A stretch of DNA of 64,000 bases from Candidatus Schekmanbacteria bacterium (GTDB lineage: Bacteria; CSSED10-310; JACPHN01), in assembly GCA_016188575.1 (NCBI GenBank), contig JACPHN010000228.1, positions 35,961-99,960 on the forward strand. The letters run 5' to 3'. The notes beneath the pieces are model-generated. The model had not been told where the DNA came from. It saw nothing but the letters and a program-made list of their open reading frames with translations, and did no database searches. Numbering within the stretch: position 1 is the first letter of the stretch; each line of letters starts with the position of its first letter. Below, piece by piece: positions 1,195 through 61,437 of this stretch. Position numbers and translations under genes: made by a program.

Positions 1195-1447
1195 GTTGGC
1201 TGTGGAGCTTGAGGCGCTCCCACTATACCGCATTGTGCGGCGATTCACCACCGCGCGGCGGACCGTAAAGAGACTCCCTCGAGCAGGCACGCGCGAAACC
1301 GGTGCCGGCGAATGCCGATAATTAGACTTGGAGGCTGGCCTACGCGACATGGAGGCTCCGAAGGCGGCACGCCGTCGCCTCCGAACGAATGGGTGGGCCG
1401 GCCAGATGGGCCTGATTGGGGGCGGGATGTCGAAAGGAGAAGCCGTC

Positions 1448-4400: not shown

Positions 4401-7225
4401 TCGACAGCGGCGAGGTAGCCGTTCGCGGGAAGGTTCCCTGGGGAATCCCGCCACACACCAAGCAAAGTCTAGGGGCGGCACTGGGCTGGTCGGGCAGCCC
4501 CGCCGGCTCACCTCTCGATGTCGCCCCCTACCTGACGTATGAGGCCCGTACGGAGGTCGCCCGCGCCACGCTTACCAGCGCCGAGGTCGATGCTCTGCTC
4601 GCCGCCGATTCCCGCGCCCAGGCGCTCTTCGCTCACGCTCAGACCCAGGGCTACGAATACTACGATATCGCGACCAGGACGACGGCAAACGACGGCTCGG
4701 AGGTCACCCACCTCTGGCTATTCGACCCCGCCACCCGGATGCCGGCCGCGGTTACCGTGCGGACGGGCCCTGGCCTCACCGGCGCGTCGAGCATCCTCGA
4801 GACATTCGGGACCTCCACCTTCGCCCTGGCCGACACGGGCGGAGCCATGGCGCTCGACATGAACCGCAACAGCTTCCTCGGCCCAACAGGCACATGGGCG
4901 ATGGCGAACAGCCCAAGCTACGGGCAGTGCCTCGGCACCTGTATCGGCAAGCAAGTGCCAATCTGGGTAATCGGCCGCGTGTTCAAGGCCGTGGGCGCGG
5001 CGATGAATAGTTGGACCTGCGCCAAATGCGCTACCGGTGACAAGGGGTCGTGCGCCGGGTGCTTGACGCTCCTCTCCGAGAATGTTCCGTTCCTCGGGGA
5101 AGGAGTCGATATTTCCATGTGCGTGAACGACTGCCTCGAGTGCGTGACGGGAAACCCGGACAAGTGCCACCTCTGCGACAAAGATAAGCGTGGCTGTCGT
5201 CCGGCCAACCTGGTTGAGAAGTACATCATGGGCCAGGACGTGGTCATGTACGGCTACGACTGCATCAACGGCGTCTACGCCTATGGGGAAGAAGTCCAGT
5301 TCTGTCCGCTGTGCACGCACGGCCAGACGTGCAAGGCGGAGGAGTGCAGCGACGTGGCGAGCTGCTGCGACTGCCAGAAAGAGAACTGCGCGCGGCCGCG
5401 GGAGGCGCGGCCTTGTGGCCGTAACGCGGCGGCCCGAGCGCCGGCAGAGCAGTGCGATATCAACCAGGACGAGGTAGACGGCGAGGTCCAGACCGCCCAC
5501 GACCCGAACGCGAAGTCTGGGCCGTCCGGTGACGTGGTGCGCGGGCAGACGCTCAGTTATGTCATCGATTATGAGAACACCGGCTCGGGAACGGCGCAGG
5601 GCGTGTTCGTCAGCGACCAGCTCAGCGCCTATCTCGACGAGAGCTCGCTTGTCATCGAGGGCGGAGGCAGCTACGTGCCGGGGACGCGAAATATCTTCTG
5701 GAACGTCGGCGATCTCGCTCCCGGTGCTGCCGGGCAAGTGCGCTACTCGGTCCAGGTGCGCGACGATGCGGCCATCGGCGGCGTGATCGTCAATGTCGGA
5801 CGGGTGTTCTTCCCAAGCGTTCCCGAGGAGACGACCACGAACGCAGTGGTGTCGACAGTGCGGACGGTCGTGGCGGAACCGCAGCAGGTGCAGGTGGTCG
5901 AAAATACCGCTGTACCGATTACCCTCAGCGGCCGCGATCCGGCCGGCCGGGTGCTGACCTACGCGATCGTCAAGCAGCCAAGCAGCGGCAGCCTGACCGG
6001 CACACCTCCAGACGTGATCTACACGCCGGGAATCGACTACGATGGGCCGGATAGCTTCAGCTTCACTGCCGGCAACGGGCTGACGACAAGTGAGGCCGCG
6101 GCCGTCGCGATCGTTGTGACCCCGTCTTTCTCGGATCAGACGCCGCCGCACGTCGTGCGCGTCGAGCCTGCCGACGGGAGCCAGGGCGTCGCGATCACCG
6201 CCGACGCCCGCGCTGAGGTCGCACGCGTCTGCTTCGACGAGCCGCTTGACCCGCTGACCGTCACGGTCGCCAACGTCCGCCTGAGCTCCAGGGGCGAAAG
6301 CGTCGTCGTGGAGCTCGTTCACGATCAGGTGCAGAGCTGTATCGGATTGGTGCCGGCGGTGGCGCTCGCGAATGACACGACGTACGTTGCGGCTGCCGGA
6401 AAGGACCTGAAGGACACCTCCGGCAACGCCATTGAAAGCGACCGCACCTGGAGCTTCCAAACGGCTGGGCAGGGCAGCGCGAACCCGGAACCGGCGACCG
6501 TTGACTTTTGCCTGGCGGCAGTGGGGACTACTTCGGCGGCGCAGAGCGTAACCATTTCGAACGTCGGCGCCACCGACCTGGCGTTTTCGAGCGCGGCGCT
6601 GGACGGAACGGGGGCCGGGGACTTCGCAATCGTATCCGACGGCTGCAGCTCAGGGCGACTGGTGCCCGGCGGAAACTGCGCCGTCGACATTCAGTTTGCG
6701 CCGCTGTCAGCGGGCGCAAAGTCCGCGACGCTGGAGCTTCTGGCGCCGGATGCTACTGTCCACGCGGCGCTCACCGGCGTCGCAGGCCAGACCGCGTTGC
6801 GCCTTGTTGCCGACTCATACACGGTCAGCGAGGCCGGCGGGAACGTCACGCTGGAGGTCCAGCGCCTGGGAAGCACGAGCGCCGAGCTTTCGGCAAGCTA
6901 CGCAACCGCCGATGAGAGTGCCGTGGCGGGTCAGGACTACGTCGCTGCCGCTGGCACGGTGACGGTGCCGGCCGGTCAGTCGACCGGAACGATGACCGTG
7001 ACACTGCTCGACGACGCTGCCCGCGAGGCGGAAGAAGTCTTCCGTGTGGCTCTTTCCGGTGCCGAGGTTTGCGGCGGGACGGCGACCGCGGCGCGTGTCG
7101 TGATCACGGACGACCTGCCCTTGGTCCGGGTAGGAACCCTCGCCGGGTTGCTAGTCGGCCTCGGCGCCGCGGCACTCGTAGCCGCGGCCGCGCGCCGGCG
7201 GCGGTCCCAACACCGCACGCTCTGA
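1448..7225 (+). CDS. Giant secreted surface/adhesin-like protein (~1,926 aa): signal peptide, FG-GAP/VCBS repeats, two DUF11-like conserved-repeat domains, a Cys-rich insert, Ig-like region, Calx-beta domain and a C-terminal hydrophobic helix plus RRRR tail
   Basis: ATG at 1448 is preceded by an AAGGAG ribosome-binding site, and [20 protein letters not shown] is signal-peptide-like. The N-terminal half has many DxDGDG FG-GAP motifs ([32 protein letters not shown] and others). The Calx-beta-like segment is [20 protein letters not shown]...[31 protein letters not shown]. The last 35 aa are [34 protein letters not shown]. The upstream TTG at 1328 given by the ORF track is rejected as an over-extension. 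Confidence 0.8.
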
Positions 7226-29452: not shown

Positions 29453-29800
29453 TCAGGCAAAAATATCGATCAGCGTTCCGAGCATCCGGTCGGACGACTT
29501 CACGACGGCCGCGTTGGCTTTGAAGCTATTCGCGGCGTCGGAGCGCTCGACGGACTCCTCTGCGATGTCCGTGTTTGACAGCGTCTTGACCGAGCCGTCC
29601 TTGAAGGCCATGCGGGCCGTAGCATCAGCGTCTTCGACGCGGCCACGCACGCCCCCTCCAGCTCGCTCCTCCGCCCTGACTCGGCTCGCCCTGAATCCTT
29701 CGGTCTGCAGGTTGGCGACGTTGTTCGCCGATACCCCGACGCGTGACGCCTGTAACGACATGCCGGAAATCGCCGCCGACTGGGTAGAAATTGGGTTCAT
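29453..29800 (-). CDS. Flagellar basal-body rod protein FlgB/FlgC-family-like small protein (~115 aa), orphan
   Basis: The N-terminal block AISGMSLQASRVGVSANNVANLQTEGFRASRV is like the rod-protein block ...ANNLANANTPGYK. The C-terminal block VERSDAANSFKANAAVVKSSDRMLGTLIDI is like ...ERANFADNSLKYQ...VL...MLxxLIDI. No other flagellar genes are in the window. Confidence 0.5.
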   Translation of the reverse strand: MNPISTQSAAISGMSLQASRVGVSANNVANLQTEGFRASRVRAEERAGGGVRGRVEDADATARMAFKDGSVKTLSNTDIAEESVERSDAANSFKANAAVVKSSDRMLGTLIDIFA

Positions 29801-29978
29801 ATCAGAGACTATACGTCGCAGCTCGGACCGAATCAAGTGCATGTCCTATGCCCGCCGCTCGCGTCCGGAGGGAACAATACTTCACGCCGATCTGCACGCT
29901 CCTTCATAGCCAGGCGAAGGCGGCAGCCGGCGAACGCGGCACCGAGCGATTCCTTGTTCCTGGCATCCGCGCAGATTG

Positions 29979-29995
29979 TGGCGCGTTTCTTGCAT
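29979..29995 (+). promoter_or_regulatory. Sigma-54 (-24/-12) promoter TGGCGCgtttcTTGCAT upstream of the lipoprotein gene
   Basis: GG and GC are at the canonical 12-bp spacing (consensus TGGCAC-N5-TTGCW). It lies 53 nt upstream of the 30048 start codon, and an NtrC-family activator gene lies immediately downstream. Confidence 0.55.
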
Positions 29996-30047: not shown

Positions 30048-32363
30048 ATGATGCGCGGACGCATTCTCACAACATTTCTCGCACTATCTCTCATCGCGGC
30101 AGGGTGTACCAATGTGAAAATCGATTCACCCAAGAACGGTGGGCTCTATCCCGATGCTCCGGATTTCAAAGTAAGCTACAACAGTGAGCCGTCAGGCCTC
30201 ACCCTCAAGCTCAACGGCACGGATGTTACCAGTTTCTTCGCCGTGGGCTCCGCCGCCGCGACCGCGTCCGGCGACGCACTGGCCGCCTATGTCCTTCCCG
30301 GCGACAACCAGTTCGAGGTTACCCGGCCGTCTTTCGTGAGCCCCGTCCAGTTTCACTTCGATGTCGTCGGCCCTACCGTCAAGGTGACATCCGTTGACGA
30401 GGCCTCACCTCTCGTCGTTCACGGACGCGTCGAGGACCCGGCCGGTGTGGCGCGCTTGAGCTGCAATGGTGCCGCGGTCACCGTTTCCGGAGGCAGTTTC
30501 ACGGCCACCGTAGCCAACGCCGCCTTCGTCGGCTTCGAGGCGGAAGACGGCTTCGGACACGTCTCCACCACCACCTTTGCGCGGCCCGGCACTGCCCTCG
30601 GCTCCAGCATGGGCGCCCGCCTGAACAAGAGTGGCATCGCCTTCCTGGTGGCGGAAATCTCGAATCTCCTGGGCAAGCTCGACTTCGGCGAGCTGATCAA
30701 GGAGCTCAACCCGCTCTTCGACAAGAGCATCGGTGTGGCGTCCGCTCGCGTGGACGCAACGGATGTCGAGATCTCCGCACCCAAGGTCAGCCTGGCCGTC
30801 TCGCCATCCAACGATGGGACCTTCGATGTCGGAGTTGACATCTCGGACCTCGTCGTCTACGTCCACGCTACCGGAACCGTCATTGGCATTCCGTGGGAAA
30901 CCGACGGAGTCGTCTGGGCGGACCTGGTCAGCTTTGACGGTAAGGCGAAGGTCACCGTCACCAACCAGAAAATCGGTGTGGCGCTGAGCAATCTGTCGCT
31001 GGTTCTGAATGGGTTTGGATTCGACATCAGCGGCTTCCCCGATGTTCTGGAAGGTCTCTTCTTCGACCTGGTCGGCGATCTGCTTGAAGGCTTCATCAGG
31101 GACGAGCTCGCTACACGGATTCCCCCGTATATCGAAGAGTTTCTCAAGAATATCCCCTCTGACTTCCAGATCGATCTTGACGGCCACGCCTTCAGGATCG
31201 CGGCACTGCCCCAGGCGCTGACAACCAAGGACGAAGGCATGTCGGTCCACCTCGCCGCCTCCGTCAGCACCCTTACCCCAGTCGATGTGCCACCAGCCCT
31301 GGGGTCGCTCTACGTTGCTGGCGCGACGCCTGATCTGGGGACCAAGACGCCCGGAGGCAAGGCCTTCGACGCCGGCGCTGTCGTCTCGGGAAACCTGATC
31401 AATCAGGCACTCCTCGAGGGATACCGCGCCGGCCTTACACATGTCGGGCTTGACGAGCAGACCAATCCGCGAATTTCCCCGGCAGGTCTGCGCGGGATCG
31501 GCATGGAGATCCAGGGACTCTTTGATGGAGATGACGTGCGCTTCAACGTGCTGCCATCGAGCCCGCCGTATGCCGGCATTCGCGGCACCCAGACCGCGCT
31601 CGCTGCTCTGGCGATGGACGAGTTTACCTTCGAGCTCGAGCTGCGCAAGCAGGGTACCGACGACTGGCTGCTGGTCTTCGGGGCCGTTCTCGATATGAAC
31701 GTCCCCTTCCTCATCGGCGTCAGCGACAACAACACGGTCAAGGTCACGTTTGAAGAGGTGCCGACCGTGAAGATCCGCGACATCGACGACAGGGGCGTCA
31801 TTGACCTCGACGAGAAGCTCGTGCAAGCGATCATTGATTGGCTCTTGCCGCTCGCCCTGCCGTACCTCGCTGACATCGTCGAGGAAATCAAGATCCCGAG
31901 TTACGAAGGCTATGGCGTCTGGTTGCACGACTTGTTTGCCACCGGCTCCTCGACAGACTACATCGCTTTTGCCGGTAATCTGGTCAAGGATTCGACCCGA
32001 ACCCGCGCCGCGCGTCCGGAAACGTATGTGCTCGTGGAGGATGTTGCGTACACCTCGCGGTCCTTCGCGACCGAGGTCGCACCGGATTCCGCGCTGGATG
32101 GCAAGCTGGTGACCGTGTATGTCGCCGGCGATGTCCCCGGTGCCTCGGTGCTGCAGTACTCGTATCGGCTTGACAGCGGAGAGTGGTCGGTCTGGCGCGA
32201 GCGAACCGAGATCCACCTGCGTCATTTGCTCGCCGGCGATCACGTCTTGGAAGTGCGCAGCCGCACCCCGCAACTTGCGGTCGACCCCACGCCCGCACGG
32301 GTCGTGTTCCGGACTGGACCCGAGTCGTACAGGTTGACGTTGGGGCGACCTTTCGCCCGGTAG
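30048..32363 (+). CDS. Large lipoprotein (771 aa) with a lipobox signal peptide and a C-terminal Y_Y_Y-like domain
   Basis: MMRGRILTTFLALSLIAAGC is a signal peptide ending in the lipobox LIAAGC. The C-terminus VLQYSYRLDSGEWSVWRERTEIHLRHLLAGDHVLEVRSR resembles the two-component-regulator Y_Y_Y domain. The gene is preceded by a sigma-54 promoter. Confidence 0.8.
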   Translation: MMRGRILTTFLALSLIAAGCTNVKIDSPKNGGLYPDAPDFKVSYNSEPSGLTLKLNGTDVTSFFAVGSAAATASGDALAAYVLPGDNQFEVTRPSFVSPVQFHFDVVGPTVKVTSVDEASPLVVHGRVEDPAGVARLSCNGAAVTVSGGSFTATVANAAFVGFEAEDGFGHVSTTTFARPGTALGSSMGARLNKSGIAFLVAEISNLLGKLDFGELIKELNPLFDKSIGVASARVDATDVEISAPKVSLAVSPSNDGTFDVGVDISDLVVYVHATGTVIGIPWETDGVVWADLVSFDGKAKVTVTNQKIGVALSNLSLVLNGFGFDISGFPDVLEGLFFDLVGDLLEGFIRDELATRIPPYIEEFLKNIPSDFQIDLDGHAFRIAALPQALTTKDEGMSVHLAASVSTLTPVDVPPALGSLYVAGATPDLGTKTPGGKAFDAGAVVSGNLINQALLEGYRAGLTHVGLDEQTNPRISPAGLRGIGMEIQGLFDGDDVRFNVLPSSPPYAGIRGTQTALAALAMDEFTFELELRKQGTDDWLLVFGAVLDMNVPFLIGVSDNNTVKVTFEEVPTVKIRDIDDRGVIDLDEKLVQAIIDWLLPLALPYLADIVEEIKIPSYEGYGVWLHDLFATGSSTDYIAFAGNLVKDSTRTRAARPETYVLVEDVAYTSRSFATEVAPDSALDGKLVTVYVAGDVPGASVLQYSYRLDSGEWSVWRERTEIHLRHLLAGDHVLEVRSRTPQLAVDPTPARVVFRTGPESYRLTLGRPFAR

Positions 32364-32481: not shown

Positions 32482-33873
32482 ATGAGCGAATCCGCCACCA
32501 TCGTCGTCGTGGATGACGAGCCACTCATGCTGAAGTTCTTGGTCAAGAGTCTTCGCAATGAAGGCCATGACGTTTTCGCGGCGACGAACGGGGAAGAGGC
32601 CCTCGCGCTCGTCGATAGCCACAACCCTGACGCGCTCATCGCCGATCTCAAGATGCCGGGAATGACCGGCATCGAGCTTCTGGAGAAGGCGAAGTCCCGG
32701 CGGGCCGGGCTGGATGTCATTGTCATGACCGGCTTCGCGACCGTCGACAGTGCCGTCGAAGCGATGAAAAAAGGCGCGGCAGACTATATTACCAAGCCGT
32801 TTTCGCCTGATGCCATCAAGCTCGCAGTGGCGAAGCTACTTGCTCACCGGCGCGTGCTGCGCGAGAACGACGCTCTCAAAGACCAGCTCGCCGAGCGGTT
32901 CGGCTTTGACAAGCTCATAGGCCAAAGCCGAAAAATGCAGGACGTTTACCGGATGGTGCAGACCGTTGCAGGCGCGACCGTGGTCGTGCTCATCGAGGGC
33001 GAAAGCGGGACGGGAAAAGAGTTGGTGGCGCGGGCAATCCATGCCAACTCGGCGCGCTCCGGTGGCCCCTTTGTCGCGGTCAACTGCAGCGCCCTGGTGC
33101 AGGGCTTGTTCGAGAGTGAGATGTTCGGGCATGAACGCGGCGCATTTACCGGCGCCGTGCAAACCAGACTTGGCCGCTTCGAGCTGGCGAACGGCGGCAC
33201 GATTTTTCTCGATGAGGTCAGCGAGCTGGCACAGGCAGCGCAAGTCAAGCTGCTGCGAGTCCTCCAGGAACGCCAGGTCGAGCGCGTGGGTGGCGCTCGG
33301 CTTCGTGACGTCGACGTCCGGGTAATCTCCGCCAGTAACCGGAACGTGCGCAAGTGCGTGGAGTCCGGGTCGTTTCGGGAGGATCTCTATTATCGTCTCA
33401 ATGTTGTCCGCATCGAGCTTCCACCCTTGCGGGAACGTCTGGACGATCTCCCGATTCTTGTCGAGCACTTCCTCGCGTCCGAAGCGCGTCGCCGCGGCGC
33501 CACGCCGAAGAGGCTCAGCTCGCGGGCTCTCGAAGCGCTGCTGCGCCACTCCTGGCCGGGGAACGTGCGCGAGCTGCAAAACATCATCGCCGGGGCCGTC
33601 GCGTTGTCGCCGTCCGCCGTGATCGTCCCCGAGCATTTTCCCCCGGGCGCGCTGCGCCCCGATGCCGATCCCGTCGGGGCGGACGCCCTACCTCTGCCCG
33701 GACAAATCTCCGGGACGCTCGTGGACGCTCTGGACGCCATCGAAAAGAGGCTGATCGCGCGGGCACTGGAACGTTGCCACTGGGTGCAAGTAGCGGCCGC
33801 CAAGGAGCTCGGAATCAAACGCGCAACGCTGCAGTACAAGATGGCCAAGTATGGCCTGCTTGGCAAGGCGTAA
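32482..33873 (+). CDS. Sigma-54-dependent response regulator (NtrC family): receiver, AAA+ sigma-54 activator and HTH domains
   Basis: IVVVDDEPLMLKFL...D54 region is the receiver domain. GESGTGKELVARAIH is Walker A and GAFTGA is the sigma-54 contact motif. A C-terminal Fis-type HTH is present. Confidence 0.9.
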   Translation: MSESATIVVVDDEPLMLKFLVKSLRNEGHDVFAATNGEEALALVDSHNPDALIADLKMPGMTGIELLEKAKSRRAGLDVIVMTGFATVDSAVEAMKKGAADYITKPFSPDAIKLAVAKLLAHRRVLRENDALKDQLAERFGFDKLIGQSRKMQDVYRMVQTVAGATVVVLIEGESGTGKELVARAIHANSARSGGPFVAVNCSALVQGLFESEMFGHERGAFTGAVQTRLGRFELANGGTIFLDEVSELAQAAQVKLLRVLQERQVERVGGARLRDVDVRVISASNRNVRKCVESGSFREDLYYRLNVVRIELPPLRERLDDLPILVEHFLASEARRRGATPKRLSSRALEALLRHSWPGNVRELQNIIAGAVALSPSAVIVPEHFPPGALRPDADPVGADALPLPGQISGTLVDALDAIEKRLIARALERCHWVQVAAAKELGIKRATLQYKMAKYGLLGKA

Positions 33874-35985: not shown

Positions 35986-37887
35986 TCAGCGGACGGTTAG
36001 AACCGAGTTTTGGCCGCCGAATGGGTCCGGTTTGAACCGATCCGCCTTGATGTCGGAGAGCCACATGACGTCATTGACGACAAACTTGTACTCATATTCA
36101 CCCGGGACCACGTGCAAGGTGATGCGCCACGATCCGTCGCTTGCCGGCCCGGCGAGCTGATGCGAGAGCCTGTTCCAGCCGTTCATGGACCCGGCCACTG
36201 CGACGCAGCGCAGCCGCGGCGGCCGAAAGCGAAACACGAGCGGACCGGATCCGCCCTCAGGAATCACGACGACGCTGCTTTTCCCGCGATCCACTTCAAC
36301 ATACTTCGCGGTCCCTAGCTCCACCCTCTCAAAGGCTGCGGACAGCGGGTCTGCGAACCAATTTGTTTCGTCCACCAGGAAATTATAACGATATCGCCCC
36401 GGAGGAACATCGATGGAGACCGTCCAGACGCCGTCGCCGTCGAGGTCCTCCAGTAGATGAGATACCTTGTTCCAGTGGTTGAAGTCTCCGACGAGCGCAA
36501 TCGTGGACGGGCGGTAGACGACAAACCCGCCATCGGCGTCAGCTTCGAAGTAGTCCGCGGGTTGAAAGCGCAGCTCCACGGGAGTCCGGGGAACCGATCG
36601 CCCGACGAAGATGACCCCGTTGTGACCGCCAAAACCGTCGTTGACGTAGGCATCCGCCTCGGGGTCGGCCATCCACACGTGACCATCGAGAACAAACTTG
36701 TAGGGGTAGTCACCCGCTGGAAGGTCGATGGTGAGGATCCACAGCCCGTCTGCACCGCCGTCCTTGAGCAAATAGGCTTCATCCTGCTTGAAGGCGCCGT
36801 GCTCGGTGTTCGCCCAGCCGTTGAAGCTCCCCGCAAGCTGCACGGATTGGGTCCCTGCAGGGGGGCGGAACCGAAAGGTGACCGGGATCCTGGCGGATTC
36901 CCGTGGTGCGTCCTCGTCGCCAGGGGCCAGATCCTTTTCTATCCGAGCGAGTAGCGTCTGCAGGTGCGCAAAAAGGGGATCGGTCGGAAACGTTGCAAAG
37001 GAGAATAGGCGCCACCGCGCCTTCGATCCGCTGATGCGCAGGACCGAGGCGCGCCCTCCGAGGAGGATCTCATCCTCGGCGGCGCTGGGGTCGGAAAACC
37101 AGTCGTTCCCATTGACGAGGAACTTGTAGTGATATGTGCCAGGTTCAAGGTGAAGCCGTGTGGTCCAGACTCCGTCATTATCTCGGTCTTCCATCGCATT
37201 TGCCGTGCGATCCCACTCGCCCTTGTGCCCAAGTGAAAAGCTCCCGACGAGAAAGACGCTGCGAATGGGGCAGAGAGAAATGGCGCGCGTCAACGTTGCG
37301 CGTGCGGCAAGGGGATCGTTTAGGTGTAGCTGCGCGCTGGCGAGGCGCTCGTAGACGTTCAGCCAGGAAGGGCGGTCGAGCAACAAGGAAGCAAACGCTG
37401 CTGCCGCCTCCTGCCATCGCCCGCTCGCGAGAGCGGCATCTGCCGTCTCGAAGCGATCGAGGTCGGCGGCCAGACGATCGACATCGTCGGCTGCGGGCTC
37501 GAGAGCGCGGGCGTTGGCGCAGGCATGACGCGCTGCCTGGACATTTCCGCGGGCCGCCTCGAGCTCGGCCAGTAGCTTCGTGGCGCTGCTGCGGTCGACG
37601 GCAGCGCCGCGCGGAATCAGCCGCATCGCCCGCGTAACCGCGTCGATGGCGCGGTTCAGGAGGTGGGCGTCGCCGTAGATACGGGCGAGCAGAAGCGCTG
37701 GGTAATGCCAGTTCGGCGCAGTGCGGATGGCGGCGTTGAGCTCTTCTGCGGCTTCACCATAGCGCCTTGCCTGATGCAGAACGATGGCACGCTCGACGCT
37801 CCGCTCCGCGTCGTCATGGGGGCGGGCGCCGATCAGTAGCGCAGTGCAGAAAATCAGAACGCGAAGCGAACGCTGCGAGCGCGTCAT
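35986..37887 (-). CDS. Secreted TPR-repeat protein with four tandem CBM48 / AMPK-beta glycogen-binding-like (E-set) domains (~633 aa)
   Basis: MTRSQRSLRVLIFCTALLIGA is signal-peptide-like. An N-terminal TPR region is followed by four units such as VFLVGSFSLGHKGEWDRTANAMEDRDNDGVWTTRLHLEPGTYHYKFLVNGNDWFSDP. Confidence 0.75.
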   Translation of the reverse strand: MTRSQRSLRVLIFCTALLIGARPHDDAERSVERAIVLHQARRYGEAAEELNAAIRTAPNWHYPALLLARIYGDAHLLNRAIDAVTRAMRLIPRGAAVDRSSATKLLAELEAARGNVQAARHACANARALEPAADDVDRLAADLDRFETADAALASGRWQEAAAAFASLLLDRPSWLNVYERLASAQLHLNDPLAARATLTRAISLCPIRSVFLVGSFSLGHKGEWDRTANAMEDRDNDGVWTTRLHLEPGTYHYKFLVNGNDWFSDPSAAEDEILLGGRASVLRISGSKARWRLFSFATFPTDPLFAHLQTLLARIEKDLAPGDEDAPRESARIPVTFRFRPPAGTQSVQLAGSFNGWANTEHGAFKQDEAYLLKDGGADGLWILTIDLPAGDYPYKFVLDGHVWMADPEADAYVNDGFGGHNGVIFVGRSVPRTPVELRFQPADYFEADADGGFVVYRPSTIALVGDFNHWNKVSHLLEDLDGDGVWTVSIDVPPGRYRYNFLVDETNWFADPLSAAFERVELGTAKYVEVDRGKSSVVVIPEGGSGPLVFRFRPPRLRCVAVAGSMNGWNRLSHQLAGPASDGSWRITLHVVPGEYEYKFVVNDVMWLSDIKADRFKPDPFGGQNSVLTVR

Positions 37888-38461
37888 GCTGCCGGATGCA
37901 ACTGGCGCACCAAATAGGTAGCGCGGCATCTCTTGCCCTCGAGCACAGGTGTACATTCTCGACATCGCGCCCACGCAGGTTTCTGGTGCAACGGCGGCGC
38001 GGTCAGCTTGTACCGACGAGCAAAAGGCTTTCCTCCGTCGCTTCCGTCATACCCACCCTCTATCACTCGTGCGCCGAGCTGACAAGTCCGCAGCGCCTAT
38101 CCCATTTTATCCCGTGCCCAAACGATTCCAGTCGCCGGGCCCGTGGGCGCGCAAACAAGATCATGGTATTCCCCCCTCGGGTATCCCGTGGCCGACTGAC
38201 TGTGGGCCGCGCGCGCTCTGCCAGGTTTTCGGCAGCGCGTGTCCCGCGCGACGCGGCCTGAAGAACCCGACGTTGTCCACATCGGCTGACGTTCCTGGCA
38301 CAGCGCGTGACTTCTCGTGCACAATTCTATTTGTCCGTCGTGCGGGCTCCTGGGGAAGAAGCGCTTATTGCCGCGTTCGCGCGCGATCAGAATGGATGGC
38401 GCGATTTTTGCTAGATGCAAGGTGCCACGCCTGACCACCGTCCTCTGCGTTGGAGTATACC

Positions 38462-40894
38462 ATGTCCCGCACCGCTCGCTACCTCAGCAGCATCGCCTGT
38501 GCGCCAGTCCTCCCCATCGTCGCCATCGCGGCCGCACTGCTGGTGTCCTCGCCGCCCCTGCTGCATGCCGCTGCGGCCGACAACAACGTTGAGTGGGACG
38601 GACTCTTCAGCGATCAGTCTGCGAACTTCATGACCCCAACCGAACCCAGCGCGAGTGACAACATAACGGTTCGGCTCCGGGCGTTTCGCAACGACCTGAC
38701 CGCGGCTGCGGTCCGCTACTGGGACGGTGCCGAGCGCTTTGTGAGCATGACAAAGACGTCAACGGACACCGTCTACGACTACTACAGTGGCGTGATCCCG
38801 GCGCACAGCGAGACGATCTGGTACCGGTTCCGTATTACGGACGGTAGCAAGAGCGCCTGGTACAATCCGCTCGGCCCCTCGGATGCCGAGCCGTCGTCGC
38901 GCGATTTCCAAATCATCCCGGGCCTCAGCACTCCCGACTGGCTCAAGAATGGCGTGATCTATCAGATCTTCGTAGACCGTTTCTTCGACGGCGACTCCGG
39001 CAATAATGTCGGGGCGAACGAGTATTCGCTCGGTGTTCACTGGGACGGCGACCACCAGGGAGATCCGGCGCGGGCGTACACGCACTCGAGCTGGTCTCAC
39101 CAGCCGGATAATGCCCTGAAGCACCTGGCAAATGCCGGCACAGATCCCGGCGCACCGCAGGACGAAGGTCTCGGCCGCATGACCTATGCCGCCAATGTCG
39201 ACTTCTTCGGCGGCGACCTCGCCGGCGTCGCGGCGAAGCTCGACTATCTGCAGGACCTCGGCGTCACCGTGCTGTACCTCAATCCGATTTTTGCCTCGCC
39301 CAGCAATCACAAGTACGACACCATGGATTTCCGCATCGTCGATCCCCACTTTGGAGGCAACGCCGCGCTCCACGACCTGATCGACGCAGCGCATGGACGT
39401 GGCATGAAAGTCGTCATCGACGGCGTCTTCAACCACACCGGGCACTGGCACCGCTGGCTGAATCGGCGTGATGGCGATGAGGCGCTCGCCACGGGCGACT
39501 ATGCCCCCTACGCGGAGGACGGTGCCTTCCAGGCGGTCGAGACTGGGCAGTTTTCCGTCAGCAGTGACGGCGTCGCCGCTTCCACGGTCAATGCCGCCGT
39601 GGACCGCTATACCTTCCGGGACATGGAGACCTATACCGCGGCCTGTCAGAGCCCGCTACCCAAGAATGGCGTCATCGAGGCTGACGAATACTTCTCGTGG
39701 TGGGGATTTTCGTCACTTCCCAAGATCAACTATGACGCAGACTCAAACGGCGATGGCATGGAGGAGCTCCGATACTGGCTCTACGGCGGTCCGAATGGCA
39801 TCGGCAACCTTGGCGAATCTGCCTCCGGAACCGTGATCGCGGGGAGCATCGCCGAGGAAGTCGGCACCACCAAGCCGATTGCGCGGCTATGGATCGAGGA
39901 CTTCGGCGTCGACGGTTGGCGGCTCGACGTTCCGAACGACGCGGGCGGGCGCAGCGCGGGGTACCCCACGTCGAACGACCACGCGATTTGGAAAGGCTTC
40001 CGCAAGGCAGTCAGGAACGCGCGCCTGGACACGTACATCTTTGGCGAGCTGTGGACAGAAAGCGATGTCGCTCCCTACCTCGACAACGGTGACGAGTTCG
40101 ACGCCGTCATGAACTACCACGGCTTCGCCGATCCCGTATCGCTGTGGGTCAATGGTCAAAACACGGCAGCCGAAAAGACCACTACCGACCTCGGCCAGGC
40201 GGACATCATGACTGTCGACCAGTTGGACTCGTGGCTTTCAGGAACGCGGGCGAGCTTCGCAGGTCCAATCGTCTATGCGATGGACAATCTGCTCGATAGC
40301 CACGATTCTCCGCGGTTCCTGCGCCGGACCAAGGCGCACAAGATTCTCAAGGGATGGAAAGAGGGCTCATGCGGATTCTATTCCAACCCCGACTTCTATG
40401 ATGGCAGTGGAGAAGACGTGTGGAAGCTGAAGCTGGCACTGTTCCTACAAATGAGCTACGTTGGCGCGCCTTCGCTGTTCTATGGCGATGAAGTCGGGCT
40501 TTCCGGAGCCGACGATCCCTCGTGCCGGCAGCCCTTCAACTGGAACTATGGCCAGCAAAGCTGGCGCGTGGAGCTTCGCGATCTGGTCAAGAAGCTTATT
40601 GCCGCTCGCAAGCAATATTCGGCGCTGCGAACGGGCTCGATGATGACCTTGTATCGGCACAACGACAATCAGATATACGCGTTCGGCCGCTGGGACAGCG
40701 GTGCTCGCATCACGGTTGTGCTGAATAACTCGAGCTACGCGCAAGACGTGTCGGTTCCGGTGTGGAAACTCGCCATTCCCGACGGCAACAACGTGCTGGA
40801 AGATGCGCTAACGGGGGCGCGGCTGACGGTCGCCTCCGGACATGCTACGGTGCATGTCGATGGCCACTTTGGAGCGCTGCTGGTAAACCGCTGA
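38462..40894 (+). CDS. GH13 alpha-amylase-family glycoside hydrolase (neopullulanase/cyclomaltodextrinase-like) with an N-terminal accessory domain
   Basis: The conserved GH13 regions are present: DGVFNH (I), GWRLDVPND (II), FGELW (III) and LLDSHD (IV). The start MSRTARYL has a GGAG site upstream. Confidence 0.9.
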   Translation: MSRTARYLSSIACAPVLPIVAIAAALLVSSPPLLHAAAADNNVEWDGLFSDQSANFMTPTEPSASDNITVRLRAFRNDLTAAAVRYWDGAERFVSMTKTSTDTVYDYYSGVIPAHSETIWYRFRITDGSKSAWYNPLGPSDAEPSSRDFQIIPGLSTPDWLKNGVIYQIFVDRFFDGDSGNNVGANEYSLGVHWDGDHQGDPARAYTHSSWSHQPDNALKHLANAGTDPGAPQDEGLGRMTYAANVDFFGGDLAGVAAKLDYLQDLGVTVLYLNPIFASPSNHKYDTMDFRIVDPHFGGNAALHDLIDAAHGRGMKVVIDGVFNHTGHWHRWLNRRDGDEALATGDYAPYAEDGAFQAVETGQFSVSSDGVAASTVNAAVDRYTFRDMETYTAACQSPLPKNGVIEADEYFSWWGFSSLPKINYDADSNGDGMEELRYWLYGGPNGIGNLGESASGTVIAGSIAEEVGTTKPIARLWIEDFGVDGWRLDVPNDAGGRSAGYPTSNDHAIWKGFRKAVRNARLDTYIFGELWTESDVAPYLDNGDEFDAVMNYHGFADPVSLWVNGQNTAAEKTTTDLGQADIMTVDQLDSWLSGTRASFAGPIVYAMDNLLDSHDSPRFLRRTKAHKILKGWKEGSCGFYSNPDFYDGSGEDVWKLKLALFLQMSYVGAPSLFYGDEVGLSGADDPSCRQPFNWNYGQQSWRVELRDLVKKLIAARKQYSALRTGSMMTLYRHNDNQIYAFGRWDSGARITVVLNNSSYAQDVSVPVWKLAIPDGNNVLEDALTGARLTVASGHATVHVDGHFGALLVNR

Positions 40895-41163: not shown

Positions 41164-41616
41164 TCAACCGACCTGCTCGGCTTCGTCAAACGCCGGGAAC
41201 GATGAGGCATAGCGGTCTATCCACTCCCGCGCTGCTTCCTCCGTGCTCAGCTCCCGGCCCTCGGTGATGCTCATCTCAGCCTTGTAGTGCATGATGTGGC
41301 AAAGTTGCTCGAGCAAGCGGACGCGAAAAAGATCCTGCTCCTCAACAAAGGCGACGCCGATGTGGCACGTGCCTTCCCGCTCGCGGCACCAGGCGATCTT
41401 TCCCCGAGCCTGGAAGCGAGGCGAAACGATCGGGAACCGGACTTTCACACAGGTTCCGGGCGCGACGGCGTTCGCCGACATATAGCACAGTCCCCCCAGA
41501 CTGATGTTTTGGAGTCGCTCTCGCCGTGTTCCCGTTTCGCTTTCCGCGGAAACGTCGATGGGAACATCAGATGGATGGCGAATGAACTTCCTCATGTCCT
41601 CTACTTTTCGCCACAT
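41164..41616 (-). CDS. PilZ-domain protein (c-di-GMP receptor-like), ~143-150 aa
   Basis: RRERLQNISLGGLCY matches the PilZ RxxxR...(D/N)xSxGG pattern. The start is either 41616 or the MRKF at 41595. Confidence 0.6.
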   Translation of the reverse strand: MWRKVEDMRKFIRHPSDVPIDVSAESETGTRRERLQNISLGGLCYMSANAVAPGTCVKVRFPIVSPRFQARGKIAWCREREGTCHIGVAFVEEQDLFRVRLLEQLCHIMHYKAEMSITEGRELSTEEAAREWIDRYASSFPAFDEAEQVG

Positions 41617-41649: not shown

Positions 41650-42606
41650 CTAATTCTTTCCTTCAATGTGACTCAAGAATTCTCCTTGCGTCGACATGAG
41701 CAGATACGTGTTTTCGTCGATAGTCTGTTGATAAGTCTCCATAGTCTTGTAGAAAGAGAAAAATTCGGGATCGGCGCTATAGGCGTCCGCGTAGATTTTC
41801 GCGGCCTCAGCGTCAGCCTTGCCCTTGACCTCCTGAGCCTGTGCGTAGGCCTCCGAGGTAATTCGCTTTAGCTCCCGGTCCCGGTCGCCGTTGATCTTCG
41901 CAGACTCGCCGGCGCCTTCGGAGCGGAACTGTTCAGCGATCCGCTTGCGCTCCGAGATCATGCGGGCGTACACCTCGGCGCGCACATCCTCCACGTAGTT
42001 GATGCGCTTGAATTTGAAGTCCAGGACTTCAATCCCGAGGTCCGATTCTTTGATGCGCGCGCCAGCCTTCTCCAGAACGAGAGCCGCCAGTCGATCGCGT
42101 CCCACCTGCACGCGCTCAGCGGCGGCGTCGGGTTCGGCCTGTGCACCACCGACGTGTTGATCCTCGGAGATGGCAAACTCGCGGTTCGAGCTGCGGACGA
42201 CCTCGATGAGGTCATGTCCGGCGATCACATTGCGCGTTTCACCGTCGAGAATGTCATCCAGTCGTGAGCGCGCCCCGGACTCGTCCCTGAGTCGGGTGAA
42301 GAACTGGAAGGCGTCGGATATCCGCCAGCGCGCATACGTATCGACGTACACGAAGCGCTTGTCCCGCGTGGGGACCTGATTGCGCTCCCCATCCCACTCC
42401 AGAAACCGTTTTTCGAAGCGATGAACGACCTGTATCACGGGGATCTTGAAATACAGACCCGGCTTCGTGGTCACCGTGTCACCGACGCGCTCGCCGAATT
42501 GAGTAACAAAGACCTGGTCGGCCTCGGTGACAATGTAGGCGCTGGCGCTGAAGCCCAGGATGGCAATTACCGCGCAGATCGCGACGACGATCAGAGTGTT
42601 TTTCAT
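41650..42606 (-). CDS. hflC: SPFH/band-7 membrane protease modulator HflC
   Basis: An N-terminal TM helix is followed by an SPFH domain. Its start overlaps the hflK stop as ATGA. The local GC content is lower than the window average. Confidence 0.85.
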   Translation of the reverse strand: MKNTLIVVAICAVIAILGFSASAYIVTEADQVFVTQFGERVGDTVTTKPGLYFKIPVIQVVHRFEKRFLEWDGERNQVPTRDKRFVYVDTYARWRISDAFQFFTRLRDESGARSRLDDILDGETRNVIAGHDLIEVVRSSNREFAISEDQHVGGAQAEPDAAAERVQVGRDRLAALVLEKAGARIKESDLGIEVLDFKFKRINYVEDVRAEVYARMISERKRIAEQFRSEGAGESAKINGDRDRELKRITSEAYAQAQEVKGKADAEAAKIYADAYSADPEFFSFYKTMETYQQTIDENTYLLMSTQGEFLSHIEGKN

Positions 42607-43586
42607 GGCTTGACTCCCTCCAAGTTCAGGAGCGGGAGCACACTTTTGATGTCATCATCGACGATGATCTTGTGCTTGACTCGTGGGAAGATCTCCGCCA
42701 TCGTCTCGAGGTAGATCCGCTTGCGCGTGACGTCAGGGGCGGAGCGGTATTCCTGCCAGAGGGCGCGGAAACGGTCGGCATCACCTCGCGCTCGATTTAC
42801 CCGGTCCAGTGCGTATCCCTGAGACTGGGCGATCGTTTCCTGAGCTTGCCCCTTGGCCTTGGGGATAATGCGGTTGAACTCTGCCTTGGCTTCGTTTATC
42901 ATCCGCTCCCGCTCCTGTTGGGCCTGGTTGACTTCGTTGAATGACGGCTTTACTTTATCCGGAGGCGTAACGTTCTGCAATACTATTTGTTCTACATGGA
43001 GCCCATTCTGGTACTGATCACAGAGGTTTTGTAGTTTTTTTGCTACCTCGTCGGAAATCTGCTGTCTCCCCACTGTTAGTACTTCATTGACACTGTGATC
43101 ACCGATGACTTGACGCATTACGGCCTCGTTCATGTCACGGAACGTAGAAACAGCATTACGTACCTTGAATAGGTATGCGCGCTCATCACTGATTCTGTAC
43201 TGCGTAATCCACTCAACAACAGCGACATTGAGATCTCCTGTAAGCAAGAGCGATTCGTCGCTGAAGTCCTTGTTGGAATAGACAGTGCGTCCTCCCGCAG
43301 CCTGTAGTGTGCGAAAGCCGAACTCCTCCTTGAGCTGGCGCTGAACGGGGACTTTTCGGACCGTCTCGATTGGAATGGGCAACTTGAAGTGGAGACCCGG
43401 CTGCAGAGTGCGGTGGTAGCGCCCAAACTGCAGGATCACGGCGACTTCTTCAGGTTCGACCGTAAACCAGATGCTCGTCGACAGCGATAGTACGAAGAGC
43501 GCCACCGCGACCTTGAGATACAGCGAAAGCCGCTTTCTCGCGTTTGGCTTGGGGAGCGCGCTGAGCTTGAAGTCACTGGGATTCAC
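42603..43586 (-). CDS. hflK: SPFH/band-7 membrane protease modulator HflK
   Basis: A TM helix is followed by an SPFH domain (VAVILQFGRYHRTLQPGLHFKLPIPIE). The start is GTG, with a GGGGAGGG ribosome-binding site. Confidence 0.85.
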   Translation of the reverse strand: MNPSDFKLSALPKPNARKRLSLYLKVAVALFVLSLSTSIWFTVEPEEVAVILQFGRYHRTLQPGLHFKLPIPIETVRKVPVQRQLKEEFGFRTLQAAGGRTVYSNKDFSDESLLLTGDLNVAVVEWITQYRISDERAYLFKVRNAVSTFRDMNEAVMRQVIGDHSVNEVLTVGRQQISDEVAKKLQNLCDQYQNGLHVEQIVLQNVTPPDKVKPSFNEVNQAQQERERMINEAKAEFNRIIPKAKGQAQETIAQSQGYALDRVNRARGDADRFRALWQEYRSAPDVTRKRIYLETMAEIFPRVKHKIIVDDDIKSVLPLLNLEGVKP

Positions 43587-55000: not shown

Positions 55001-56098
55001 GCGCTGTATGAGCGCGCGATCGCCATTTGCAGGGAGTGCGAGGATCACCTGGGAGAAGCGATACGCCTCAACAACCTGGCGCGGCTTCACTACCTGCAAG
55101 GCGCCTACAACAAGGCGCTGCAGCTATTTCGCGCCGCCATGGCCATCTTCAAGAGCTCCGGAGAACGACCCTCGGAGATGGCGGCCCTCAACAATGTCGC
55201 CCTGCTGTACCATGTCGGTGGTCGCCTGGAGGAAGCGCTGGAGATGTATCTGCAGGCGCTCGCCTTTGCGCGTGCGATCGGCGCCGGCGCGCAAATCTAC
55301 TCGACACTCTGCAACATCGCGGATGTCGAGCGTGCCAAAGGGCTGCTAGGTGCCGCTTTCGAGCACGCTCGCGAGGCGCTTGCCCGGTGCCGCGACGTGG
55401 GCAGCCCGCAAGATGAGGCGGCGGTGCTCATCTTGCTCGGCCGCCTGCATCTGCATGCAGGACAGCTCGACGAGAGCGAGGTCATGCTCGTGGCGGCGAG
55501 CGAGAATGCGGCGCGGAGCGGCTCCGTGGCGCTTGAGGCGGAGGCGCGCTACTTCCGAGTCTCGCTTTTGGTTATCCTGGGTCACTTGCAGGAGGCCCGA
55601 GCCGAGGTGCAGGTAGTGGCAGAGCTTGCGCAGCGCTCCGGGGTCGCGGAGCTGGCGCTAGCCGCGCGGGCGGCAGTGGCGCGCCTGGCGGATGCGCTCC
55701 CAGGAGAGGACGAGCTTGCGGCGCTCAGCGAGCGGGCCAGCGGCACCTGGGTGGCCGGGCCGCTTGCGGTCGATGTCGCTGAGGCGCTTCGGCTGCGCGC
55801 CCGGACCGCGGAAGCGGTGCGCCTGTTGTCGCGGCTTATTCCCGGGATCAGCGATCGCACCTATCGATTCCGCCTCCTCCATCTGCGATCGATGTCGCAT
55901 CTCGAGCGCGGGTCACTTCGGCTCGCGGCGGCAGATCGCCGAAGCGCCGGGGATGACGTGGCGGAGCTGCTGGCAGGAGTCCCCGCGGAGCTGCGTGCCA
56001 CGCTGGCCGCGCACCCGTGGGTGCGGGAGGTGCTCGGCGACGGCCAGGTGTCGCCGGCACCCCCCGCCATGCCTCCCCCCGCAAGCGGGGGGAGGTGA
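52085..56098 (+). CDS. Multidomain Ser/Thr protein kinase with a central AAA/STAND-like NTPase and C-terminal TPR repeats (~1,330 aa)
   Basis: Kinase blocks are LGRGGIGVVYRA, HRDLKPANIL and DFGL. The P-loop is FIGGASGSGKTRL. Numerous TPR-like repeats follow. The ORF-track start at 51545 overlaps the divergent activator gene and is rejected; the start is 52085 or 52124. Confidence 0.8.
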   Translation: MVPAAPRKSASTPMSTPNRPVQTVGPFELEEELGRGGIGVVYRARHRATGQAVALKTVRVPDLPMVASIRREIRALARVDHPGVVRIVADGVAAGIPWYAMEIVAGQRLDEYCRRFWLPRAAVVTAAAPVGSAASRTWVITTEAIEVPAAGLAAAASTPPAGAAPPPARQQPTDLGELLGVIIRVCQTLAYIHGESIVHRDLKPANILVKTDGSPVLLDFGLTVRSVGRSSREVLDAEAFQSVGTISYMSPEQIRGELVDARADLYSLGCILYELLTGKLPYAGSTPREILLGHLSSTPIPPAQLAAGIPSELDHLLLWLLAKEPRKRPGYATDVISALIRCGAFQAGMASAPVPRDYLYRPPFVGRTAAVQTLTGCLAELRRGRGSIVFIGGASGSGKTRLMVELTRLARQMVRALALVGESPMPVSPGAPEHWGCTSPLGALREPLRAIGDRCRQDGAAMTARLLGDHARLLAAYEESLAELPGVSALPSPAELPSDAAVVRLFAALLEAFAALADEQPLLLILDDLHWADDLTLQFLSFLCRGDYIKARPWLLVGTYRTEEAGRDLRLLADHSGVHHLQLEPLSEKEVGVLVREMLGLADEPTQFVDFLHSQCEGNPLFVSEYLRTAISQQLLRRTEGTGWHVVDAENAVGGPLYETLRLPRSLADLINRYLDSLGGPAREVLQAAAVIGRETDADLLVQTAGVAEPTTVEATVELLSRKVLEELQGGQLRFTHSKLREVAYGRIAPSRRQQLHGAAAAALSGRADAAAELAGTVARHYESAAMPELAAPYYVLAAERSLARYANREAGDFARRALDLGAASALDAAHHCRALLCLGAVRERAGDWVAACAAFEEAIGIAESARGKLYRQALLAYARLLTRAGDPARAVALSQRCLLLAEAAADLSLQARAHTLQGIAHGMKGEVAAATAFFEQALALGEASGDRDVISQALDHLADMHLQGGCAAEAEALYERAIAICRECEDHLGEAIRLNNLARLHYLQGAYNKALQLFRAAMAIFKSSGERPSEMAALNNVALLYHVGGRLEEALEMYLQALAFARAIGAGAQIYSTLCNIADVERAKGLLGAAFEHAREALARCRDVGSPQDEAAVLILLGRLHLHAGQLDESEVMLVAASENAARSGSVALEAEARYFRVSLLVILGHLQEARAEVQVVAELAQRSGVAELALAARAAVARLADALPGEDELAALSERASGTWVAGPLAVDVAEALRLRARTAEAVRLLSRLIPGISDRTYRFRLLHLRSMSHLERGSLRLAAADRRSAGDDVAELLAGVPAELRATLAAHPWVREVLGDGQVSPAPPAMPPPASGGR

Positions 56099-58649: not shown

Positions 58650-58894
58650 TTTTGGGCTCCCGCGCAAGATACCAGGATGCGAAAGGTATTTTTGGCGGTC
58701 CACGCTGCATGAATCGTACCAGGTGCGGGGGGGCGCCCGCACTGCCGGCGGAAGCGCCACGCGGCGATATTCTGGCGCCTCCATGGCGGGCCTCCGAACG
58801 CCGAAAGAGAGAAACGCCTGCAAACTATCGCCAAGTTCTTGCGTTTCACCGGTGCCCGGCAGGCTAGTTTGCCGGCCCGTCTTGGCCGTGTAAA

Positions 58895-61060: not shown

Positions 61061-61437
61061 GAGATTTTTCTCCCTGTCCATCAGGCACGGCGCAGACCAT
61101 CCTATTTTCGCTCGCCAGCTTGCACAACGGCGGCGAACGGCCCTGCCGAGTCCCGCGATTACTGTTTTCCGGACCTTATTCACACCGCGTGCCAGCAGAC
61201 GGATTGACTGAGATTGCCACCGGTTGCACGTTCCATCTGGCGGTATCGTGTACCTTGCACACTCTGCCGAGGCGTGGGCGTTGCGTCGTGTCAATTGCAC
61301 GACAACCCGGCGCTCTGTGCCCGGTGGTGTGCAGCCTGACGCGGCTGCTTTCGTTGGCATGCTCGTTGCTTCCACGGCAACAAAACTCATTCACAGCGGC
61401 GGTACGCCGCAGCCTCGCCAAACAGGAGAAAACGATC

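Follow-up and report, generated by a model that had tools for sequence, protein, structure and literature searches.

A solitary gene in a Schekmanbacteria contig encodes a divergent member of a large, uncharacterised family of small FlgC-like axial proteins

The present analysis concerns a short minus-strand open reading frame (ORF) at positions 29453–29842 of a 64,000-nucleotide (nt) stretch of Candidatus Schekmanbacteria bacterium DNA (assembly GCA_016188575.1, contig JACPHN010000228.1, positions 35,961 to 99,960 of the forward strand), hereafter called the window. A sequence-only reading of the window had described this ORF as an orphan gene related to those of the flagellar rod proteins FlgB and FlgC, lying antisense between a hypothetical gene and a lipoprotein operon, and had proposed that it might be a remnant, a rod-like protein recruited to another apparatus, or a false ORF. 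We found that the ORF is a real gene whose annotation is right at the superfamily level, and that its product, judged by the conserved positions it retains, is a divergent but intact member of a large, uncharacterised subfamily of the flagellar axial superfamily, for which we coin the name mini-FlgC. The explanation that we favor, and consider fairly probable, is that the window gene is a functional member of this family and encodes an accessory rod-type protein, dependent on flagellar export and additional to the canonical FlgB and FlgC.

The ORF scan identified a reading frame of 129 amino acids (aa) that carries both of the blocks quoted earlier as hallmarks of the rod family, '...SANNVANLQTEGFRA...' and '...SDRMLGTLIDIFA'. 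The features of the locus are the following:

29453–29800, minus strand: coding sequence of a 115-aa mini FlgC-like axial (rod-type) protein, MNPISTQS...TLIDIFA followed by a stop codon, which is the most likely product.
29801–29842, minus strand: in-frame 5' extension (MHLIRSELRRIVSD) of the mechanically called 129-aa ORF, probably untranslated.
29808–29836, minus strand: sigma70-like promoter, TTGATT-17 nt-TATAGT, a consensus match only.
29690–29773, minus strand: N-terminal axial block (Flg_bb_rod), ...VGVSANNVANLQTEGFRASRV..., residues 24–51 of the 129-aa ORF.
29465–29578, minus strand: C-terminal axial block (Flg_bbr_C), SNTDIAEE...FKANAAVVKSSDRMLGTLIDI, residues 89–126 of the 129-aa ORF.

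The internal ATG at 29800 is most likely the start codon, giving the 115-aa product, because the NCBI call and the N-termini of the homologues agree on it. The 115-aa form is identical to MBI2571354.1, which is annotated as 'MAG: flagellar basal body rod protein [Candidatus Schekmanbacteria bacterium]' (MAG, metagenome-assembled genome) on a 113-kb contig, and the homologues align with the internal start (MNPIS...). The extension upstream of it is missing from the homologues, and the predicted -35 hexamer falls within that extension. A second start candidate, the TTG at 29836, would yield 127 aa as in the Logan call P0002, a version that maps to the same locus only (7.7 kb). Transcription of the window gene appears to start from a sigma70-type promoter of its own; the TTGATT-17-TATAGT match is the sole sigma70-like site between 29300 and 30100, where shuffled sequence gave a mean of 0.1, and it ends 7 nt before the ATG, so that the predicted mRNA would probably be leaderless or nearly so. 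The GC fractions at codon positions 1, 2 and 3 of the ORF (0.59, 0.50 and 0.75) are coding-like, as they are in the adjoining genes.

A Pfam search bore out the presence of the two rod-family blocks: PF00460 (Flg_bb_rod) scored 29.4 bits against a cutoff of 20.7 (E=7.8e-7; model positions 4–31 of 31), and PF06429 (Flg_bbr_C) scored 25.0 bits against a cutoff of 23 (E=1.3e-5; model positions 8–45 of 46). None of the NCBIfam equivalog cutoffs was reached. The FlgC models TIGR01395 and PRK12632 gave 28.7 bits versus 102.1 and 25.6 bits versus 170, respectively, the latter with a full-length alignment (E=1.2e-5); the FlgB model TIGR01396 gave 20.8 bits versus 59.05; and the models for FlgG, FlgF and FlgE (TIGR02488, TIGR02490, TIGR03506 and others) gave 33–37 bits versus cutoffs of 70–470. 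Since all of these cutoffs were missed, the window protein is not FlgB or FlgC proper. In contrast, the profile built from its own family matched it with 111 bits (E=3e-27 in 1.8e9 proteins), profile positions 2–116 aligning with residues 4–114, which places it among the best 150 family representatives. Of 26 positions that are conserved in at least 80% of the members, 22 are kept by the window protein and the remaining four changes are conservative. The conserved family positions include S12, V23, A25, N26, N27, A29, N30, R40, E45, V51, S75, D78, A80, E82, A95, N96, M106-L107-G108 and D112.

An AlphaFold2 model of the 115-aa form, built from a 102-sequence alignment, had a predicted local distance difference test (pLDDT) value of 86.6 and a predicted template-modelling (TM) score of 0.73. 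It displayed a helix at residues 3–29, four short strands between residues 39 and 74, and a helix at residues 79–114; the N- and C-terminal helices are predicted to pair in a D0-type hairpin, and the fold plan is one of two D0 helices linked by a four-stranded beta linker of ~45 residues. When the model was compared with the PDB using Foldseek, the top matches were FlgC chains of the assembled Salmonella proximal rod (7cg0; 7bin_V/W), which superposed with query-normalised TM scores of 0.84–0.88, a root-mean-square deviation of ~2 Å and 22–24% identity. FlgC in these structures has the same topology, i.e., terminal D0 helices around a small beta domain, and the motifs ANN[VIL]AN and GGV are common to FlgC and mini-FlgC. 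Alignment of the family with the canonical FlgC of one carrier genome by hhalign gave a probability of 96.8% over the full length, with two insertions in canonical FlgC relative to the family. The description 'FlgB/FlgC-like' therefore stood at the level of the fold, where the likeness is to FlgC.

The family differs from FlgC in several respects. Mini-FlgC is ~20 residues shorter, its hairpin insertions being incomplete, and the window protein scores far below the FlgC equivalog cutoff. In a neighbor-joining tree, the family groups on its own, and a long branch splits it from the one canonical FlgC used as outgroup. The flgC gene typically sits in a flgB-flgC-fliE cluster, whereas the window gene is found outside any such operon; no FlgB, FliE or other axial gene occurs with it in the 64 kb of the window. 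When the family profile was run against PDB sequences, FlgG scored highest (73 bits, in two terminal stretches), followed by FlgE (62 bits) and FlgC (52 bits, in one full-length stretch). The terminal helices of mini-FlgC are thus closest in sequence to those of FlgG and FlgE among the PDB axial proteins compared, and some members are annotated as 'FlgG1' or 'FlgE', but mini-FlgC has no D1/D2 domains and measures 115 aa versus 260–400 aa. These results make the window protein a paralogue that has the fold of FlgC and termini resembling those of FlgG/E.

An initial search yielded 12 relatives of the window protein, and a profile made from these retrieved more than 2,700 proteins, the best 120 of which were uniform, mostly of exactly 117 aa, and originated from Desulfobacteraceae, Luminiphilus, Thermodesulfobacteriota, Desulfocurvus and many metagenomes. 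The member in Desulforapulum autotrophicum HRM2, ACN16168.1, carries the annotation 'FlgG1'. An exhaustive HMMER search of 1.84e9 representative proteins with a 102-sequence profile gave at least 150 clusters at 50% identity, scoring 107–205 bits and nearly all 113–119 aa in length. A total of 286 genome matches were confirmed in several phyla, and the taxa represented included Desulfobacterota, Proteobacteria, Holophagae, Hydrogenedentes and other groups. We collected 99 loci, from which 87 non-redundant loci with a family member were retained. Greedy ORF calling proved unreliable in GC-rich loci (in the window, it chose an antisense ORF of 773 aa), and neighborhood clusters at high GC were used only where Pfam or BLAST confirmed them.

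A second axial-family ORF within ~10 kb was observed in one of the 87 family loci. A solitary position is hence a trait of the family, the genes being typically monocistronic and scattered, and the isolation of the window gene, which had been presented as an anomaly, is to be expected, since 86 of the 87 loci lack a further axial gene at distances of up to 10 kb. The neighborhoods differ among lineages. In Desulfobacula and Desulfobacter the order is rpoD-dnaG-hisA-hisB, a SprA-related gene, isochorismatase, mini-FlgC, a LEA_2 lipoprotein and NlpC/P60; in D. autotrophicum, mini-FlgC lies between MTHFR genes and histidine kinases; in one further lineage (L008, L011) it adjoins a GGDEF-EAL protein; and the gene for P0003, the closest relative of the window protein at 45% identity, lies between a fucose-isomerase-like gene and peroxiredoxins. 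A SprA-related gene (PF12118, 120.9 bits) is found directly 5' of mini-FlgC on the same strand in 26 Desulfobacteraceae loci (8501–9229 in L024). Genes for cyclic di-GMP proteins also occur near family members, namely GGDEF-EAL in L008 and L011, and GGDEF together with PilZ in L046.

Evidence that links the family to flagella comes from gene neighborhoods and from promoters. The single locus with a second axial gene, L046, is the complete chromosome of 'Deltaproteobacteria bin80', in which mini-FlgC heads a flagellar regulatory and structural cluster. It is followed on the same strand by PilZ, a receiver-containing sigma54 enhancer-binding protein (EBP), two TPR proteins and a second sigma54 EBP, and the cluster ends with a 146-aa ORF in the flgB position, FlgC (with both Pfam domains) and FliE. 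The 146-aa ORF has no Pfam hit, and hhalign related it to the family with a probability of 1.8%. This arrangement shows that mini-FlgC coexists with canonical FlgC and FliE. In Halieaceae (Luminiphilus), mini-FlgC is located 6–9 kb from fliA, motAB, fliK and an flhB-like gene.

In 12 loci, mini-FlgC precedes, by 69–1915 nt and in the same orientation, the gene for a sigma54 EBP of the DVU2894 type (Desulfovibrio sp. DV, Solidesulfovibrio, Nitratidesulfovibrio sp. HK-II, several MAGs and the 700-kb contig of L001). The EBP in 11 of these has ~345 aa and no N-terminal sensory domain, and the one in L046 has 463 aa and a receiver domain. At least nine of the 12 loci carry a gene for a TPR protein after that of the EBP (~1000 aa in most, 609 aa in L046). 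Kazakov et al. predicted GTCA-N6-TGAC to be the autoregulatory site of DVU2894, and the latter was proposed to be a flagellar regulator similar to FlrA/FleQ which, having no N-terminal domain, may need a partner protein (PMC4641369). We found GTCA-N6-TGAC immediately upstream of the EBP gene in all 12 loci (L001, L023, L034, L046, L052, L071, L072, L080, L087, L090, L092 and L093), once per scanned region except in L046, where a second copy precedes a TPR gene. DVU2893 is annotated as 'flagellar basal-body rod protein' (PMC3114432) and is adjacent to DVU2894 by number (PMC4641369). That DVU2893 of Nitratidesulfovibrio vulgaris Hildenborough belongs to the family is suggested by the related Desulfovibrionaceae loci, in which mini-FlgC lies 5' of a DVU2894-type EBP with its GTCA-N6-TGAC site; in the closest genome examined (L090), ~1.7 kb with no Pfam hit separates the corresponding genes. 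The window, in contrast, has no DVU2894-type EBP.

The promoters of the family point in the same direction. A sigma54-like motif, NGCA[CT]-N5-TTGC, is present upstream of the family gene in 28 of the 87 loci versus five of 968 control genes (Fisher p=9e-28); the controls were other genes in the same loci, and the 28 loci are related and do not represent independent events (L009, L016, L022, L024, L026–L032, L035–L037, L039, L040, L043, L047, L048, L050, L051, L056, L060, L061, L063, L065, L075 and L076). The sites lie 36–125 nt upstream of the start codon, all but one of them within 70 nt. Most copies have A or T for the first G of the canonical GG and fit at the other positions and in spacing (examples are TTAGCA[CT]GATTATTGCA and TTGCACGTTTATTGCA), and two orthologous sites are canonical (TGGCAT-N5-TTGCT and AGGCAC-N5-TTGCT). 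A strict scan that required GG found little upstream of family genes; the signal emerged only once other bases were accepted in place of the first G. The -24/-12-type motif may be a lineage-specific sigma54 variant in Desulfobacteraceae, or else the palindromic site of a regulator. A sigma28-like motif, TAAA-N15-GCCGATAA with at least 10 of 12 matches, was observed in 12 of the 87 family loci versus 43 of 959 controls, with a perfect match 17 nt upstream of the gene in L021. Neither promoter type is universal in the family, and the Desulfovibrionaceae members, like the window gene, have sigma70-like promoters.

On the basis of these data, we propose, by analogy with FlgB/C/F/G, that mini-FlgC is probably an early substrate (of the rod/hook type) of the flagellar type III export apparatus, and that it would function within the proximal rod or next to it, whether as accessory subunit or as assembly factor, the canonical FlgB and FlgC of the carrier being encoded elsewhere. 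The proposal of export draws on two features of the protein, the terminal D0 segments and a GF motif with its Phe at position 36 (F36). The D0 segments of rod and hook subunits in Salmonella carry export signals, and the gate-recognition motif of the early subunits lies, as F36 does, more than 30 residues from the N-terminus (PMC8983047, PMC10936197); by its place in the sequence, F36 would be compatible with such a motif. The other flagellar genes of this MAG, if any, would be located elsewhere.

A number of observations weigh against this interpretation. That the protein is exported, polymerises and resides in the rod is deduced from homology and from a predicted structure, and our literature searches (for orphan rod proteins, DVU2893 and the RefSeq product name) returned no functional study of any family member. 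The window protein lies at the divergent edge of the family, in the 5th percentile for conserved positions and with no more than 45% identity to any other member, and its gene has the sigma70-like site only, with no sigma54- or sigma28-like site on its strand. Lastly, Pfam revealed no flagellar, chemotaxis or type III secretion gene in the 64 kb; that scan covered all large ORFs and the ORFs of at least ~110 aa in the three longest gaps, the shorter gap ORFs and the other gaps being outside it. A search of all six-frame ORFs of the window with the family hidden Markov model (HMM) returned no second axial protein. The earlier statement that the window has no other flagellar gene therefore holds for the ORFs covered by these two scans.

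The same absence of flagellar and chemotaxis genes would suit a relic or exapted gene in a lineage that has lost flagella or never possessed them, either a decaying remnant or a gene with a new non-flagellar role, an explanation that we regard as unlikely though worth weighing. It would also account for the outlying position of the window protein in its family, and it is in keeping with the outcome of our literature searches, which found no report of flagella in Schekmanbacteria; in addition, an isolated FliH-domain gene located after a homologue of the neighboring lipoprotein in a relative hints at scattered flagellar-family genes. However, the ORF is intact, has a coding-like codon bias and a predicted promoter, and retains 22 of the 26 conserved positions, which disfavors the remnant suggested previously. 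Isolation, moreover, is the rule in flagellated taxa too: Desulforapulum autotrophicum HRM2, Luminiphilus and Nitratidesulfovibrio are motile, and their family genes are solitary as well.

As to the recruitment to another apparatus raised earlier, we considered the adjacent lipoprotein gene (30048–32363, plus strand), which is divergent from mini-FlgC and encodes a 771-aa protein with the lipobox LIAAGC. The sigma54-like promoter in front of this gene was located at 29979–29994 on the plus strand (TGGCGC-N5-TTGCA). The lipoprotein gene is followed by one for an NtrC-type sigma54 response regulator (32482–33873), with a HAMP histidine kinase on the other strand. Pfam gave no match for the lipoprotein, and only six homologues were found among 5.8e9 proteins. 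In its AlphaFold2 model (pLDDT 72), the central ~500 residues match BPI/LBP/CETP and are flanked by Ig-like domains, and Foldseek matched it to human BPI, LBP and CETP (1bp1, E=1.8e-17, TM score of 0.65 on the target). It appears from this model to be a rare bacterial two-barrel protein of the BPI/LBP type (TULIP), and as such would be a lipid-binding protein and not a component of secretion or motility. Mini-FlgC is absent from the loci of three lipoprotein homologues, i.e., the adjacency is not conserved, and we therefore rejected the lipoprotein as a tie to another apparatus; recruitment found no support. The position of mini-FlgC next to the sigma54 lipoprotein/response-regulator operon is probably lineage-specific and incidental. 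Among the homologues, the one in L096 has a similar upstream site (CGGTAC-N5-TTGCT). The FliH-domain gene mentioned above (PF02108, 37.3 bits versus a cutoff of 24.1) lies directly 3' of a lipoprotein homologue with 51% identity (L096, 12585–13244; L097, 2779–3546) and is the only flagellar gene within 10 kb; neither the window nor the surroundings of other mini-FlgC members contain a counterpart.

A further alternative, which strikes us as rather improbable, is that mini-FlgC serves as a regulatory checkpoint, a secreted sensor of the completion of the basal body or export gate that controls a sigma54 EBP, and is not a structural subunit. The idea draws on the 12 loci with mini-FlgC directly 5' of a DVU2894-type EBP, 11 of these EBPs being devoid of a sensory domain and such proteins probably needing a partner (PMC4641369), and on L046, where mini-FlgC, PilZ and two EBPs open the flgBC-fliE cluster. 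The sigma28-type (late) promoters of some members are unusual for a rod subunit, and the window gene itself is divergently oriented with respect to the gene of a sigma54 response regulator 2.7 kb away. Small proteins that couple the state of flagellar assembly to a transcription factor are known: FlgM, the anti-sigma28 factor, is exported through the flagellar apparatus, and FliX regulates FlbD. The analogy is functional only, in that neither protein has similarity to mini-FlgC in sequence or fold, and it rests on the gene neighborhood in one clade. By this analogy, mini-FlgC could conceivably, if with little likelihood, be an export substrate of the early type, through whose level in the cytoplasm a domain-less activator of the FlrA/FleQ type would sense the state of the export gate or of the rod. 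If this were true, such a checkpoint factor would be a previously unrecognised sigma54 counterpart of the FlgM/sigma28 pair, and in lineages like the Schekmanbacteria MAG, mini-FlgC may have been kept with another partner, or even without any flagellum.

On the other hand, the synteny with EBPs is limited to one clade (Desulfovibrionales-like) plus L046, and it also takes in the unrelated folE2, so that it may reflect inherited gene order; most family members have no EBP nearby. With two EBPs in 64 kb, proximity in the window is expected by chance. We considered the window response regulator as an orthologue of FlrA/DVU2894 and rejected it, as its identity to the EBP of L046 (45%) is no closer than that of a generic EBP (44%). 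The full FlgC-like fold of mini-FlgC, finally, favors incorporation into an axial structure, as in the accessory rod-type reading.

That the gene is the canonical FlgC or FlgB of the organism, displaced from its operon, is very unlikely. The size is near that of FlgB and FlgC, the best fold matches are to FlgC, and PRK12632 aligned over its full length; however, the TIGR01395 and TIGR01396 scores are far below their cutoffs, the protein falls in the 117-aa family instead of clustering with FlgC, it is ~20 residues short in the hairpin region of FlgC, and in L046 a family member stands alongside canonical FlgC and FliE. Long chance ORFs are common in GC-rich DNA, but a spurious antisense ORF, as allowed for in the sequence-only reading, is refuted here by the two independent Pfam domains above cutoff, the 111-bit family match, the thousands of homologues, the confidently predicted fold and the coding-type GC at third codon positions.

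The rest of the window is of incidental interest. A single perfect GTCA-N6-TGAC palindrome (GTCATTGTCATGAC) occurs at 32716–32729, in the part of the sigma54 response-regulator gene that encodes the receiver domain. In the 7 kb scanned, ~0.1 such sites would arise by chance; the site was treated as coincidental. The second sigma54 activator (50060–51898, minus strand; 612 aa) has no receiver domain and a long unannotated N-terminus, and it adjoins a 1517-aa Ser/Thr kinase-AAA-TPR (MalT-like) protein (51545–56098, plus strand); the two ORFs overlap by ~350 nt, and one of the starts is probably miscalled. The only loosely motility-related item is a small PilZ protein (41164–41616, minus strand; 44.6 bits), encoded in a gap that separates annotated genes, the neighbors of which are two SPFH/Band 7 genes (41650–43586) and a response-regulator/cyclase-like gene (43704–44933). 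Another sigma54-like site (TGGCGC-N5-TTGCT, 38397–38412, plus strand) lies 38 nt 5' of an 814-aa alpha-amylase-family gene (38450–40894), which is divergent from the gene for a 662-aa TPR protein that bears several modules for glycogen binding, namely AMPK1_CBM, CBM48 and X25 (region 35986–40894). There are three very large FG-GAP/VCBS-type repeat proteins (1328–7225, plus strand; 56154–58823, minus strand; 61063–63999, plus strand), one of which has 1965 aa with DUF11, Calx-beta and Big domains, and two TerD genes at 46813–48098. Such content is typical of a large-genome environmental bacterium, and more than 6000 genes are suggested by the locus-tag index. Scanning the window for Rfam families and tRNAs gave no hits.

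For the window itself, the finding is an ordinary one, that of a correctly annotated rod-family protein whose isolation is normal for its subfamily. The family is of interest to flagellar biologists as a large, phylogenetically broad and very uniform set of FlgC-fold proteins that coexist with canonical FlgB/FlgC, are almost never encoded in flagellar operons and often have promoters of the sigma54 or sigma28 type; in Desulfovibrionales, a member flanks a predicted master regulator similar to FlrA/FleQ. Mini-FlgC could add a component to the rod, or it could serve in assembly or regulation. Some of the carriers are tractable hosts, and the role of the family is a modestly interesting question in flagellar biology.

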